Virus record (IMG/VR): IMGVR_UViG_2923350032_000001
Coordinates: 750 to 64,749 of that record
Source of the DNA: a virus
Lineage: Duplodnaviria; Heunggongvirae; Uroviricota; Caudoviricetes
Direction: 5' to 3' (one strand)
DNA length: 64,000 nucleotides
Shown here: one piece after another, positions 9,790 through 30,716 of the stretch
Position numbering within the stretch: position 1 is the first letter of the stretch
How the letters are laid out: the number at the start of each line of letters is the position of its first letter
Translations under genes and position numbers: made by a program
The notes under the pieces: generated by a model
Told to the model about the DNA's origin: nothing
What the model saw: only the letters and a program-made list of their open reading frames with translations
Databases searched by the model: none

Positions 9790-9885
9790 TATCAGGCACC
9801 TCATTAAAACGGGTGCCGGGATTGAGACCCCGGATAATGCAAAAGGCGACACAGACGCCAAAAGCGTCTTTTTTTTGTGTCATGC
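9790..9885 (+). ncRNA. candidate c4-like antisense immunity RNA ending at hairpin GACGCcaaaaGCGTC + T-run
   Basis: structured untranslated leader between operator and icd-like ORF; terminator-like hairpin at 9862-9885; segments complementary to sequence near the icd RBS. Confidence 0.3.
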
Positions 9886-10061
9886 CATCGCACAGCCATA
9901 CGTAGCGTTTAGCTCAGAGATCAATGGTAGTGCTGGCTGGGCTGCCGAAAGGCAGGCCGGTTCCCTTTTGCGCCGGTAGTCTCAACCCAGTCAGTGCTAC
10001 CGCCATTGAGATTGAGACCTCACGCGGTAGCTCCTTAAATTAGCAAAAGGAGGCTGCCATT

Positions 10062-23259: not shown

Positions 23260-23352
23260 TTGTAGTTCCGCCGTCGTAGCAAATTCTGCGACCGGGTTTA
23301 GCAGCCTGAATACTTACGCGGACAACCGCAGATTTCCGATATTGCGGTATTT
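23260..23352 (+). ncRNA. candidate c4-like antisense RNA of the second immunity module
   Basis: untranslated region with hairpin ACCGCAGATTTCCGATATTGCGGT + T-run, arranged like 9790-9885. Confidence 0.25.
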
Positions 23353-23511
23353 TTGTGTCCGTAAACCACGTTACGCCCGAATTATGGTGGGGCGTGATGG
23401 GGAGGCTTCGGCCTGCTGGTTTCGTAAGTGCCAGTCTGCTAACCCCGTCACGTCCTGCCACCTGTTTAGCAGCGGGTCGCAGGTTGTTTATCAACTTACG
23501 AGGCCGTAACT

Positions 23512-25344: not shown

Positions 25345-25414
25345 TTGTTTTCTGAGTGCAAAGAATCACCATTTCGAGCTGGTGATTGAAGGTTGATGCA
25401 AATTTGGAGAAAAA

Positions 25415-26215
25415 ATGCAACAAACATTCAATGCGGATATGAATATATCAAACCTTCATCAAAATGTCGATCCTTCAACCACTCTGCCTGTTATTTGTGG
25501 TGTTGAAATTACGACCGACCGCGCTGGCCGTTACAACCTTAATGCTCTACACAGAGCGAGCGGACTCGGTGCCCATAAAGCGCCAGCTCAATGGCTAAGA
25601 ACGCTGTCAGCCAAACAGCTCATCGAAGAGCTTGAAAAAGAAACTATGCAGAATTGCATAATTTCGTTCGAAGGCCGTGGCGGCGGCACTTTTGCCCATG
25701 AATTGCTCGCAGTGGAGTACGCTGGTTGGATTTCTCCCGCGTTTCGGCTGAAGGTAAACCAGACATTTATCGACTATCGAGCTGGAAGATTACAACCTGC
25801 TATTCCGAAGAGCCTCCCAGAAGCTCTCCGTTTGGCTGCCGACCTGGCAGAGCAAAAGCAACGGCTGGAGCAAAAAATGCTTATGGATGCACCTAAAGTC
25901 GAATTCGCCGAACGCGTTGCTACCGCCAGCGGGGTTCTAATCGGCAACTATGCCAAAGTGCTCGGCCTGGGCCAAAACTATCTCTTCACCTGGTTGCGTG
26001 ATAACGGAATTCTGATCGCAACCGGTGAACGCAGGAACGTCCCCAAACAAGAATACATATCCCGTGGGTATTTCACCCTTAAAGAAACCGTGATCGATAC
26101 AAGCAATGGAAGCAGGATTTCTTTCACGACTCGTATAACCGGCAAAGGTCAGCAGTGGCTGATGAAGCGATTGCTTGATGCTGGTGTGCTGGTACCTGTC
26201 GCGGCAACGCGCTAA
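25415..26215 (+). CDS. kilA: KilA (KilA-N plus KilA-C/ANT domains)
   Basis: 266-aa ORF directly upstream of repL. Confidence 0.9.
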   Translation: MQQTFNADMNISNLHQNVDPSTTLPVICGVEITTDRAGRYNLNALHRASGLGAHKAPAQWLRTLSAKQLIEELEKETMQNCIISFEGRGGGTFAHELLAVEYAGWISPAFRLKVNQTFIDYRAGRLQPAIPKSLPEALRLAADLAEQKQRLEQKMLMDAPKVEFAERVATASGVLIGNYAKVLGLGQNYLFTWLRDNGILIATGERRNVPKQEYISRGYFTLKETVIDTSNGSRISFTTRITGKGQQWLMKRLLDAGVLVPVAATR

Positions 26216-26244
26216 CAGACGTAGTAAGAACCACCAGCATTGTA

Positions 26245-27090
26245 ATGCTGGCTAAAGTCACTTTCCTGAGCTGTATAACGATGAGCGATTTTACTTTTTC
26301 TGGCTATGAATTGGCCTGCTTTGTAACACACTCCGGTCTATCCCGTAGCGCCGGGCATATCCTGTCGCAATGTGCAAATCTCGCGGCAACAACCAGTGAA
26401 TACTTCATTCACAAGCCTCACCGCCTGATCGCGGCAGAAACTGGTTATAGTCAATCAACCGTCGTTCGTGCATTCCGTGAAGCTGTAAACAAAGGAATCC
26501 TGTCTGTAGAGATTGTTATCGGCGATCACCGTGAACGTCGCGCTAACCTGTACCGGTTTACACCATCCTTTTTGGCCTTCGCACAACAAGCCAAAAATGC
26601 GCTGATTGAAAGCAAATTAAAGATCTCTTCAGCGGCAACTAAGGTTAAAGCTGTTCTCGCTAAGACATTAGCTTTATTTAATTTTTTATCCACACCCCCA
26701 TGTCAAAATGATACCCCCTCCCCCTGTCAGGATGACGTGGCAATAAAGAATAAGAAGTCACAAGTTAAAAAAACAAAAAGATCAGTTTCCGGCGGTGCCG
26801 GAACGATCAGACTCAAAAAATTGACTTCATGGATCGCTGAGACAAAAGCAAAGGCTGACAATCTGCGGTTATCCAAAAAACGCGCTCAAAAACATGAGTT
26901 CAAGCAGAAAGTAGAGGCGGCAGCGCGGAAATATGCTTACCTGAAGAACAAGCGTTCTCCTGATATTGGCGGGGTATCAAACTTCGATAATCTGCCGCAT
27001 TGCATGACGGTAAACGAAGCTCTTAATGCGGTTTTAGCCAAAAATAAAGATAACGAACAATGGGGTATACCGGCAGGATTCAGAGGGTGA
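26245..27090 (+). CDS. repL: RepL lytic replication initiator (oriL expected inside the gene)
   Basis: 281-aa ORF following kilA, as in P1. Confidence 0.9.
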   Translation: MLAKVTFLSCITMSDFTFSGYELACFVTHSGLSRSAGHILSQCANLAATTSEYFIHKPHRLIAAETGYSQSTVVRAFREAVNKGILSVEIVIGDHRERRANLYRFTPSFLAFAQQAKNALIESKLKISSAATKVKAVLAKTLALFNFLSTPPCQNDTPSPCQDDVAIKNKKSQVKKTKRSVSGGAGTIRLKKLTSWIAETKAKADNLRLSKKRAQKHEFKQKVEAAARKYAYLKNKRSPDIGGVSNFDNLPHCMTVNEALNAVLAKNKDNEQWGIPAGFRG

Positions 27091-27092
27091 TA

Positions 27093-27109
27093 GATTGCTC
27101 TAATCTGGA
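27093..27109 (+). promoter_or_regulatory. C1 operator half-site-like sequence
   Basis: ATTGCTCTAATctggag directly after repL stop. Confidence 0.35.
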
Positions 27110-27140
27110 GTCACCTGGCGTTTTCAGTTTGAGGTCGGAG

Positions 27141-27386
27141 ATGCAATCTGATTTTTTACAGTTAGCGATCGCTTTTGCAGGATATGTTTGTATTGGCTTC
27201 TGTGTATACATGATCAGCCGAAAAATGCTTGTCGATATCGACCGCAAAGAACAAGCAGAGGAGATCTTAGTATGGATTTTCTTTGGCGCGGTCTGGCCAT
27301 TAGGGATCATGTTTGCTGCAACATTTCTTCTGATGTGGATATTCACCCTTCCAGGTGATTTCTATAGAAAAAAAGCCAGACATTGA
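27141..27386 (+). CDS. small predicted membrane protein (two hydrophobic helices)
   Basis: MQSDFLQLAIAFAGYVCIGFCVYMISRK...ILVWIFFGAVWPLGIMFAATFLLMWIF. Confidence 0.35.
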   Translation: MQSDFLQLAIAFAGYVCIGFCVYMISRKMLVDIDRKEQAEEILVWIFFGAVWPLGIMFAATFLLMWIFTLPGDFYRKKARH

Positions 27387-27568
27387 TACAATCGTTGCGG
27401 GTGCTTGAGGCTATCTGCTTCAGGCATTACCCGAAAAGCAGATAGAAGAAAGCCCCAGATAACATTACGCGTCCTGCAAGACGCTTAACATTAATCTGAG
27501 GCCATATCTATGCTTAGCATACGTAGATTAGCCTCTTACCGACCAAAAGGTCAAGGAGAAGCAGGCTA

Positions 27569-27724
27569 TGAAGCAGCAAAAAGCGATGTTAATCGCTCTG
27601 ATCGTCATCTGTTTAACCGTCATTGTGACGGCACTGGTAACGAGGAAAGACCTCTGCGAGGTACGAATCCGAACCGGCCAGACGGAGGTCACTGTCTTCA
27701 CAGCCTACGAATCTGAAAGGTAAG
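27569..27724 (+). CDS. hok: Hok/Gef-family type I toxin (51 aa)
   Basis: MKQQKAMLIALIVICLTVIVTALVTRKDLCEVRIRTGQTEVTVFTAYESER fits the Hok/Gef pattern; overlapping mok-like frame 27510-27716. Confidence 0.8.
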
Positions 27725-27744
27725 AGACCTGGCGGGGAGAGATC

Positions 27745-29086
27745 CCATAAGCGCTAACTTAAGGGTTGAACCATCTGAAGAATGCGACGCCTCGGTGCCT
27801 CGTTAAGACGATGCCTCGCGTTCTTCAATTGCGTTTTGTAGGCTGTCAGGGATACTGTCCCACGAATGGCCACCTGTAAGCTCCAGATGACCATTTTTGT
27901 TATTCTCCACAACGAGTTAGTTCTTCTTTTCGGATCCGGCACTTCTGGGGGGGAAATCCAGCGATGGCTGGATTATGTCGTCAATTAAAAATGCGGCGAG
28001 TAGATTAGCAAATATCCACGCTTTCGCGAGTTCAGGTTCCTTTGCACGCAAAGCATCCAGGTGCAGCAAACTTTTGAGCCGCTTAAAAGCCAGTTCAATT
28101 TGCCATCGCAGACGGTAACAATCAGCCACTTGCTCTGCTGAATATTCATCTTCCGGTAATGATGTTAGCAATAGCACATGGCCCGCTGCTTCCAGCGTTT
28201 CCGCCTGAACTACTCGTCCTTTTCGACGATTCTCGCTGAGCAGTCGGGTTTTACTGATTAATGCTTTTTCGGGAGGAAGTGATACGGCAATGAGACGTGC
28301 CGGAAAGGGAGCTCCGGCTTTTTTATTACCTGAATTGCCTATCATTACAGTGGTTTCACCGTTCTTACCGCAATCCAGCCCGCGCAGAAAACCCATCATG
28401 TCAAAGCGCATTCCTTCTGCAGTTAACCAGCGCAATCCTCGCCAGTGAACCCGGACGATATAATCAGCTTCTCCAAAAGCAAGTGAGCGGATACATTCGG
28501 GACGCGAACCGAATCCCCGGTCAGCAATGCGTATCTCGTCTGCCGTTTGCGCAAATCGGTCCAGCCGTTCAGCGTCTCTGCTGTCGGTTAGCTCAAAATC
28601 AGTGAACTGACAGGTATGAGGATCATATCCCATATGTAGTCGCCATTCAGCGCTGCCGCCCCCGGGCGCACTGATTGCTGTTCCATCGACAAGACGCAAT
28701 CTCTTTCCGCTTGTACAACCCGTAACTGCGGCGCGTACAGCAAGTGTTTGTGCGGCAAGTATGCCAAACCAGTCGGCGGCATTCCGCAGCCGCTTCAGGA
28801 GAGCCACGTCAGATAATGTTGCAACGTCATGGAGCTGAGCCCATGCAGTGACTTCACGTAATGACATCCCCCCGGGGCCGTAAGCCAGCCCCAGACGTAG
28901 CAGAGTTGCAGCATCACGAATTTCGCGGCGGCGGGTTAGAGCCCCGGCATTACGTGCCGAAGTATCCAGTTCTTCGGGCTTACCAATATGGGCCAGAATT
29001 GCTGACCAGTTATCGTGAGAGTAATTCATCGGCACGTTAAATCATATCAGGCGTAATACCACAACCCTTAAGTTAGCGCTTATGGG
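27745..29086 (-). mobile_element. IS186 (IS4 family)
   Basis: terminal inverted repeats CCCATAAGCGCTAACTTAAGGGTTG at both ends; 370-aa transposase inside. Confidence 0.88.
27917..29029 (-). CDS. IS186 transposase
   Basis: MNYSHDNWSAILAHIGKPEELDTSARNAGALTRRR... Confidence 0.9.
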   Translation of the reverse strand: MNYSHDNWSAILAHIGKPEELDTSARNAGALTRRREIRDAATLLRLGLAYGPGGMSLREVTAWAQLHDVATLSDVALLKRLRNAADWFGILAAQTLAVRAAVTGCTSGKRLRLVDGTAISAPGGGSAEWRLHMGYDPHTCQFTDFELTDSRDAERLDRFAQTADEIRIADRGFGSRPECIRSLAFGEADYIVRVHWRGLRWLTAEGMRFDMMGFLRGLDCGKNGETTVMIGNSGNKKAGAPFPARLIAVSLPPEKALISKTRLLSENRRKGRVVQAETLEAAGHVLLLTSLPEDEYSAEQVADCYRLRWQIELAFKRLKSLLHLDALRAKEPELAKAWIFANLLAAFLIDDIIQPSLDFPPRSAGSEKKN

Positions 29087-29426
29087 AGTGATCCCCGCCA
29101 CTCTTCGTGTGTCTGGTAACCTCAATGCACCCTTTTCTCCCCAATAGTGTAAAACACAATGAAGTAGAAGGAGTTATTTCACATCATGCAAAGATTCAGA
29201 CCATATCTCCCAATAGCCTTCGCGACATGATGACTTTCAGAAATATCTAGCTGTTAACAAAATTCCATACTTGCTTTGCTAATACCACCTAGATTATATA
29301 TGGAAAAATACACCTAAAACTTAAACAAATTATATCCACAACAAACATCCATCTATTAGGATTAAAATTAATTTAATAATAAATAATACAACACCGGTTC
29401 ATTTTCTAACAAACCGGTGGGCACCA

Positions 29427-30419
29427 TTATTGGAATAACTTACTGATTACATTAAAAACATTAAGGGCGTTACTTGCCACACTAGACATCTTGGCTGAAT
29501 TTTTTTCGATTGAGTCAAGAACACTTTCGACTTCCGATAAAGTTCTTCTGCTATCTGCATCTTTTCCTGAGTCTATCGCATCTTTAATTGCAGATATAGC
29601 AGACTCTAAATTCTCCTTAAACTCACCTGTCGTCTCATCCTTCAAGAGAAGTTCTAACTCTTGTTTAAGTTTTTCCAATGATGCTCTTTTCTCATCAGTT
29701 TTACTAATCTTCCCTGAATAACTGACACAAACACATTCTCTTTTATTGCAGACAGGACAACCATTTAGATAATAACTTTCAAACGCCTCGCCAAGATCAT
29801 CATCTTTAAAAATAATCCCCCATAAAGAAAACAACCAAGCATATATATCAGCACACTCTTCATGAAGATTTTCTTTGTTGTAATTTTTATCTTCAATTGA
29901 TTTAGCATAAGCCTCTTGCAACTCACCCAACTCTTCGAATAACCTGGATGAATGATAAAACCCACCAAAAGTAGACCAAATGGTTCTATTCGACGGATAG
30001 ATGTCATTAATCATTCGTGGCGCATAAGGCGGAAATTGCATAGGTTTAATAGCGTTATATTTATTGAAAAGCTCATCTTTAATTCCTTTTGCGCTTCTTA
30101 TTTTCTCTGGCTTTCTGTGTGTTTGAGAACAGGAACAAGGCGCCCCTAAGCAATAAGGACAGCAACTAGGAAATTTTTTATAAAATGCTTCCTGTGGTTG
30201 TATTTCAAGTTTATCACAGATTGCAAAAAGCCAAGACAATGCTTCTATATAGGTATTTTTTAATAATTCTTTATCCTGATTACCATCACGAATAAACTCA
30301 CGTGTTAAATAAGCTGTTTTCCTTGTCAGATAAGAGTACATATACTCAAATGATTTTTCTTCATTTTTTTTGCTGTAAATACCTACAATAATATTGCTCA
30401 TATCATTGATACGTAACAT
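29427..30419 (-). CDS. tandem MazG-like (all-alpha NTP pyrophosphohydrolase-like) protein with two Cys-rich zinc-ribbon-like motifs
   Basis: AT-rich ORF; start likely Met with AAGAGG RBS at about 30419; FEELGELQEAYAKSIEDKNYNKENLHEECADIYAWLFSL; CCPYCLGAPCSC and CPVCNKRECVC. Confidence 0.55.
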   Translation of the reverse strand: MLRINDMSNIIVGIYSKKNEEKSFEYMYSYLTRKTAYLTREFIRDGNQDKELLKNTYIEALSWLFAICDKLEIQPQEAFYKKFPSCCPYCLGAPCSCSQTHRKPEKIRSAKGIKDELFNKYNAIKPMQFPPYAPRMINDIYPSNRTIWSTFGGFYHSSRLFEELGELQEAYAKSIEDKNYNKENLHEECADIYAWLFSLWGIIFKDDDLGEAFESYYLNGCPVCNKRECVCVSYSGKISKTDEKRASLEKLKQELELLLKDETTGEFKENLESAISAIKDAIDSGKDADSRRTLSEVESVLDSIEKNSAKMSSVASNALNVFNVISKLFQ

Positions 30420-30716
30420 GACATTCCTCTTAAATAAGCCAATACTTCCTAGAACCATATATGCTTCGACAAAGATTAACGGACATCTTGCCTTCACAAA
30501 CTTTGACGCTACATAAATTTAACCATGTGCATACTAAATATTTAAGGTAGAAAAGTATAGGAGTATTTATTAATAGGTAACTGTTAGTTTACACTCACTT
30601 CATACCAGAGTATTTACAAGATGTTATTTTACTCTATTCGCTAGGCGGTGGAATGCGGTTGTATCAAGGGGAGGTAAACCTCCCCCGAAGAAGATTAAAA
30701 GTACAAGGGATAACAC

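Follow-up and report, generated by a model that had tools for sequence, protein, structure and literature searches.

An IS186 insertion in the terminal-hairpin loop of a hok/sok locus on a P1-like phage-plasmid

What becomes of a hok-type toxin gene when an insertion sequence (IS) settles just behind its stop codon? The question is raised by a 64,000-nt stretch of viral DNA (Caudoviricetes; IMG/VR record IMGVR_UViG_2923350032_000001, 750 to 64,749), called here the window and used for all coordinates, in which a hok/mok/sok locus of a P1-like phage-plasmid is followed by a copy of IS186. The best explanation of the whole, which we consider quite probable, is that IS186 entered the loop of the terminal hairpin of the hok mRNA, that this cost the locus its stable mRNA reservoir and hence post-segregational killing, and that the mismatched target duplication is the product of recombination. 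The window is thus a phage-plasmid instance of a case long known from hokC/gef and hokE of Escherichia coli K-12, and the population pattern of the hairpin, described below, might be the sole part that is new.

The insertion site of IS186 and its mismatched duplication

Between the last base of the hok stop codon (27723) and the first of IS186 (27746) lie 22 nt. The parts found around this junction are the following:

27730-27745, plus strand: 5' arm TGGCGGGGA (27730-27738) and loop of the terminal stem-loop
27736-27745: left copy of the target duplication, GGAGAGATCC
27746-29084, minus strand: IS186 (= IS421), 1339 bp, with perfect 23-bp terminal inverted repeats
27776-27827, plus strand: strong hairpin inside the end of IS186 that would be part of a hok read-through transcript, -25.1 kcal/mol
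27917-29035, minus strand: DDE transposase open reading frame (ORF) of IS186, convergent on hok
29085-29094: right copy of the target duplication, GGAGTGATCC
29092-29100, plus strand: displaced 3' arm of the terminal stem, TCCCCGCCA, beyond IS186 and within the part 29085-29100
29120-29132, plus strand: displaced fold-back inhibition (fbi) element, CCTCAATGCACCC, beyond IS186

The element has the size, the 23-bp repeats and the single DDE transposase gene of IS186/IS421 (IS4 family), and it is identical to K-12 IS186A at 1339 of 1339 bases. In uninterrupted relatives the ancestral order is TAA-GAGACC-TGGCGGGGA-G(A/T)GA-TCCCCGCCA-CTCTTCGTGTGTC.GGTA.-CCTCAATGCACCC, and their alleles read across the site as TAAGAGACCTGGCGGGGAG(T/A)GATCCCCGCCACTCTTCGTGTGTC.GGTA.CCTCAATGCACCC. 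The entry point of IS186 is the 4-nt loop of the 9-bp GC-rich terminal hairpin of the hok mRNA. The reconstructed target, GGGG-AGAGAT-CCCC, agrees with the published preference of IS186 for GGGG(N6/N7)CCCC (PMC6925257), and the duplication has the expected length of about 10 bp, its two 10-bp copies differing by one base (A/T). The original prediction had IS186 beginning about 21 bp past the hok stop, where hok mRNAs bear their 3' regulatory elements; the position shortly past the stop stands, with the distance corrected to 22 nt, and the regulatory role of the region stands too, as the insertion falls within the loop of the terminal stem. Comparison with intact loci places a candidate sok promoter upstream of the insertion and fbi past it, so that the regulatory elements of hok, among them fbi at 29120-29132 and the 3' arm at 29092-29100, do not all lie upstream of 27745.

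The closest known counterpart is hokC (gef)/mokC/sokC with IS186A in E. coli K-12, which has the same toxin family, locus layout and tac element, and in which IS186 lies in the same terminal-hairpin loop, with a 10-bp duplication (GGAGTGATCC), a transposase gene convergent with hok and fbi beyond the IS. The two differ in that hokC is chromosomal whereas the window locus belongs to a P1-like phage-plasmid, where it lies between repL and a MazG-like gene, in the Sok terminator hairpin, which is 18 nt longer in the window, and in one base of the left duplication copy of the window, which comes from later recombination. A second K-12 locus, hokE/sokE, carries IS186B in the equivalent hairpin, 18-22 nt downstream of the stop codon; ten base pairs (GGAGTAATCC) are duplicated there as well, and fbi again lies on the far side of the element. 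The orientation at hokE is opposite, the transposase gene being co-directional with hok, the toxin and leader are more divergent, and the tac/fbi helix carries a compensatory U-A to C-G change. When the hokC 3' region was followed in 5,425 complete E. coli genomes, it was intact in 3,814, and in about 1,600 the match stopped at the same hairpin position, presumably because of IS186. A known IS186 site in a promoter shares with these loci the GGGG(N6/N7)CCCC preference and recurrent independent insertions in both orientations, but there the insertions are often selected, whereas in the present case IS186 has struck a structural element of a toxin's mRNA. We found no description of an IS186-hok junction in P1-like phage-plasmids in the literature on hok or IS186 in these elements.

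The one-base difference between the duplication copies finds its explanation in the two lineages into which related elements fall, one with a GAGA loop and bplB immediately downstream and the other with a GTGA loop and a MazG-like gene downstream. In each, some members are uninterrupted and others carry IS186 between perfect duplications (L018 and L046 with GAGA, L003 and L032 with GTGA). The window is recombinant between them, because its left 415 nt are identical to the class-B locus L018 while its IS186 and right flank are identical to the class-A locus L003. A second marker in the left flank, T at 27428, also belongs to the GAGA lineage. A simple point mutation in one duplication copy was rejected in view of this marker, of the identity of the IS and right flank to the GTGA/MazG lineage and of the existence of both parental classes. 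The mismatched duplication is therefore best explained, on the sequence of its flanks, by recombination across IS186, with the crossover at the left edge of the element or shortly within it. The likeliest cause would be homologous recombination between two phage-plasmids that each already carried IS186 at this hot spot. The case also shows IS186 serving as a mobile homologous segment through which the variable region of these elements is recombined. A different combination of copies was observed in NZ_CP019216.3 (L060/L061), with GGAGAGATCC on the left and, on the right, GGATCACTCC, the reverse complement of the GTGA-type copy, which suggests either inversion of the loop or inversion and recombination at the palindromic target.

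The toxin mRNA with and without the insertion

The locus upstream of IS186 comprises these parts:

27365-27392, plus strand: candidate hok/mok promoter from a promoter scan (-35 TAGAAA, 16-nt spacer, TG-extended -10 TACAAT)
27399-27410, plus strand: tac element, GGGTGCTTGAGG, at the 5' end of the hok mRNA, pairing with fbi in the minimum free energy (MFE) fold of an intact allele
27399-27573, plus strand: hok mRNA leader and Sok target region (Rfam RF01794, 'sok')
about 27518 to about 27440, minus strand: predicted Sok antisense RNA, its ends set by homology to the annotated sokC
27510-27716, plus strand: mok leader ORF, 68 amino acids (aa), with a Shine-Dalgarno (SD) sequence GAGG at 27498-27501, 8 nt upstream; layout as in the annotated mokC
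27525-27554, minus strand: candidate sok promoter, read by eye (-35 TTGACC, 27554-27549; -10 TAATCT, 27530-27525)
27568-27723, plus strand: hok toxin ORF, 51 aa, with SD AGGAG at 27554-27558

The promoter scan puts the +1 at about 27399, which is where the match to RF01794 begins; this match covers the full-length model with 114.9 bits (gathering score, 59), and the tac of the window is identical to that of hokC. The Hok product matches the whole Pfam HOK_GEF model (PF01848) with E=2.4e-22, and the window locus, aligned with K-12 hokC/mokC/sokC and with an intact allele from a plasmid, is collinear with the K-12 genes, the mean column identity of the three-sequence alignment being 86%. The 51-aa Hok/Gef ORF with an overlapping mok frame after repL, as originally predicted, is thereby confirmed. 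The mok frame has its own SD, and a cis-encoded antisense Sok with its own promoter and terminator is predicted over the mok translation start. Judged from its sequence, the locus is closest to the chromosomal hokC/gef and is a genuine hok/mok/sok type I toxin-antitoxin locus. Predicted Sok forms a long hairpin with a U-rich tail as terminator (-33.6 kcal/mol). An 18-nt insertion relative to hokC and the Rfam model, ACGCGTCCTGCAAGACGC at 27467-27484, lengthens this terminator hairpin, and the predicted RNA measures about 79 nt versus 59 nt for sokC. The sok promoter fell below threshold in the consensus promoter scan and was assigned by eye and homology only. Two further Rfam matches below threshold, one to ceN48 (25.7 bits; gathering score, 70) and a minus-strand 'sok' match at 27308-27456 (21 bits), were taken as chance. 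Tyr47 of Hok is encoded by TAC followed by G (27706-27709), a codon context in which chromosomal hok mRNAs, hokB among them, have been reported to undergo A-to-I editing (Tyr to Cys; PMC12214031).

In the hok/sok system of plasmid R1, the full-length hok mRNA is kept inert and long-lived by a tac/fbi helix, and slow trimming of its 3' end yields a truncated, translatable and Sok-binding mRNA (PMC9841398). This system (parB) has in common with the window the overlapping mok/hok frames, the antisense Sok, the pairing of the mRNA ends through tac and fbi and a GC-rich terminal stem-loop that protects the truncated mRNA; it is uninterrupted, and its killing has been proven experimentally, whereas in the window the 3' module is split. 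The importance of the terminal stem in R1 is clear from the 3' untranslated region, where 19 of 22 loss-of-toxicity substitutions break a C-G pair of the stem and the truncated mRNA disappears (PMC9841398).

The mRNA of an intact allele related to the window (385 nt, L001:2500-2884) folds in the same closed manner, with nucleotides 1-12 paired with the last 13 nt in addition to the 9-bp terminal hairpin, and its MFE of -154.8 kcal/mol lies at z = -8.1 with respect to shuffled sequences. The partners, GGGUGCUUGAGG in tac and CCUCAAUGCACCC in fbi, form a duplex of 6 bp, a 1-nt bulge and 6 bp (-23.5 kcal/mol), and the 9-bp terminal hairpin of intact alleles accounts for -19.3 kcal/mol. Because tac and fbi are complementary and pair in the uninterrupted alleles, the ancestral locus is a full member of the hok/sok family, and the copy in the window is a disrupted one. 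In the window, the arms of the terminal stem are separated by IS186 and just a 4-bp remnant can form locally, while fbi has been moved 1,349 bp farther from tac (the 1339-bp IS plus the 10-bp duplication), so that the two no longer meet within a single transcript. When the transcript of the window was extended into IS186, tac folded solely into a local 5' hairpin. A surrogate fbi in the IS186 read-through was sought and rejected, as the best duplex with tac (-17.9 kcal/mol) is no better than the shuffled mean (-18.0 +/- 1.7); this best duplex falls inside IS186's own hairpin. Two changes within fbi were seen elsewhere: in the IS-interrupted locus L059 (CP085518.1) GCACCC has become GCCCCC, which breaks pairing with tac, and in the intact locus L014 it has become GTACCC, which keeps the pairing as G-U. 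These observations are anecdotal, and they fit a relaxed constraint on fbi after its displacement.

We propose that the GGGG-AGAGAT-CCCC palindrome, from which the terminal stem-loop of hok is transcribed, served IS186 as its target, and that the element went into the loop with duplication of 10 bp. Transcription of hok would then continue into IS186, antisense with respect to the transposase gene, and stop within the element; from its predicted fold, we infer that the hairpin at 27776-27827 could be either the 3' end of the transcript or an exonuclease barrier. The interrupted mRNA could neither form the closed tac/fbi fold-back that corresponds to the inert, long-lived form nor be trimmed to the exonuclease-protected truncated form, and it would be immediately accessible to Sok and then degraded. 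The most likely effect, by this analysis, is that the stable hok mRNA reservoir has been lost, and post-segregational killing would be lost with it because no such reservoir outlasts Sok. The toxin ORF would remain under Sok control and could still be lethal on over-expression.

Inactivation of hok genes by insertion is an older idea, reportedly originating for hokA, hokC and hokE with Pedersen and Gerdes in 1999. These three genes are regarded as inactivated by insertion elements (PMC12214031). In K-12 gef, that is, hokC with IS186, fbi is disrupted and the transcript ends inside the IS, while antisense control is retained (PMC3562002). Several points weigh against silencing in the window or limit the case for it. 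The K-12 gef locus has been reported as still transcribed and antisense-regulated (PMC3562002), the hairpin in the end of IS186 could, by its modelled stability, guard the 3' end of the read-through so that some translatable hok mRNA may persist, the silencing is itself inferred from homologues, and the Sok promoter and the ends of Sok RNA were set by homology alone.

In a rival reading the insertion is neutral or mildly attenuating, the 5' metastable and closed structures silencing the mRNA and the IS186 end hairpin replacing the terminal stem, so that the locus still kills plasmid-free or phage-infected cells. Such an outcome would be favoured by the presence of a strong hairpin 30-80 nt inside IS186, by the undecayed state of both the hok ORF and the sok region in all the IS-bearing copies that were examined, by the persistence of the ~43% of plasmid copies that carry IS186 and by the continued transcription and regulation of gef in K-12 (PMC3562002). 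We nevertheless hold it to be unlikely, as the R1 model requires fbi for the inert long-lived form and single base-pair breaks in the R1 terminal stem abolish toxicity (PMC9841398), tac complementarity within IS186 does not exceed chance, and the K-12 loci with the same insertion are viewed as inactive (PMC12214031).

A non-functional locus in which IS186 was tolerated for that very reason, the other possibility raised in the original prediction, is considerably less probable still. Many intact alleles do have weakened terminal hairpins, but the window has an intact promoter, tac and sok gene as well as intact SD sequences and ORFs of mok and hok, all in agreement with the consensus of 53 related loci; in the 346 nt from promoter to hairpin, each of the 30 variable columns shows the majority base. 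Furthermore, the intact allele folds canonically closed, and the displaced 3' arm and fbi of the window are unchanged with respect to uninterrupted alleles. The notion that the toxin was altered or silenced by the insertion is thus the favoured one of the two originally offered, with silencing argued from analogy to its homologues. An artefact, in which the join of hok, IS186 and MazG with its mismatched duplication would come from a mis-assembly across the repeated IS, is the least credible of all. It could appeal to two metagenome contigs, L079, which joins this hok via IS186 to the flank of chromosomal hokE, and L098, which joins it to another, unrelated IS186 site, and these may reflect either plasmid integration via IS186 homology or chimeric assemblies. 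Against it, the complete E. coli plasmid NZ_CP142045.1 is 100% identical across 5.2 kb around the locus and over 25 kb downstream, the same left junction occurs in several complete plasmids, and both parental classes are known as complete records.

Frequency of the interruption and polymorphism of the hairpin

The 3' half of this hok was found in 447 plasmids of PLSDB, 255 of them with an intact 3' region, 160 with the junction seen in the window and 34 with a reversed IS186 at that position, so that the locus is interrupted in ~43% of the plasmids with this hok. That at least two insertions were independent is proved by the perfect duplications, which copy two different loop alleles and lie on two haplotypes. 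Orientation alone was not accepted as proof of independence, as the interior of the IS could flip between its 23-bp inverted repeats. The insertion accounts for the common annotation of 'hokD' beside an 'IS421 transposase' in P1-like (IncY/p0111) phage-plasmids, and a hok/sok stability or defence module is probably crippled in roughly four of every ten such elements, which is relevant when plasmid persistence is predicted from toxin-antitoxin content.

The hairpin is itself polymorphic, as seen in two independent samples of 52 IMG/VR loci and 37 metagenome loci. In the GAGA lineage, only about 14 of the 62 uninterrupted alleles keep an intact GGGG-N6-CCCC, and the remaining ones carry at least six variants within the G4 and C4 runs (CCTC, CTCC, CCCT, TCCC, delta-C and delta-G). 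All of these variants break the G4 or the C4 run and thereby destroy the IS186 target motif. The majority are C-to-T substitutions, with which the stem can still form by G-U pairing, at -16 to -17 kcal/mol versus -19.3 kcal/mol. Non-singleton polymorphic sites are ~13 times denser in the hairpin (6/20) than upstream of it (8/320; Fisher p = 4e-5, for the IMG/VR sample and ignoring phylogeny). The IS-bearing loci that retain the hok 3' flank at the right junction all have CCCC, and in the GTGA lineage 0 of 11 alleles had a hairpin variant.

This pattern fits attrition by, or escape from, IS186, and it also fits selection for a weaker terminal stem. We put forward, tentatively and as a possibility that is less than even, that the terminal hairpin is a site of recurrent conflict with IS186, in which IS-refractory alleles survive or are selected while the function of the toxin mRNA is preserved, that is, a form of target-site escape. 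If selection were real, it would provide a natural example, at single-nucleotide resolution, of a host sequence that evolves off the target of an IS while keeping its RNA structure.

The surrounding phage-plasmid

The neighbours of the locus are:

25415-26215, upstream of hok: kilA, with KilA-N and ANT domains in its product
26245-27090, upstream of hok: repL
27060-27386, just upstream of the hok promoter, after repL: small membrane-like ORF, unannotated
29427-30497, minus strand, downstream of the locus: MazG-like gene, 356 aa

The kilA-repL stretch (25415-27090) is 98-99% identical to phages P1 and P7, and this lytic replicon together with P1 backbone genes identifies the window as part of a P1-like phage-plasmid; in addition, IncY P1-like plasmids match the whole region that surrounds the hok-IS186 locus. 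Between repL and the baseplate genes is a variable region, which holds the locus here and rlfA, rlfB and pmgF in phage P1. Within this region, the MazG-like gene is a marker of one of the two downstream haplotypes, and the small ORF at 27060-27386 had no match in Pfam. NZ_CP142045.1, the best-matching complete plasmid, is ~1.7 kb longer than the window in the part that corresponds to 25400-30600, with an annotated IS91-family transposase; this additional insertion is absent from the source of the window. Elsewhere, the window contains two C4 antisense RNA genes (9796-10007 and 23260-23465) along with an isrK-like RNA and an a1/b1 target element, and the presence of two C4 genes implies, from sequence, that the phage-plasmid probably has two modules of the immI/antirepressor type.

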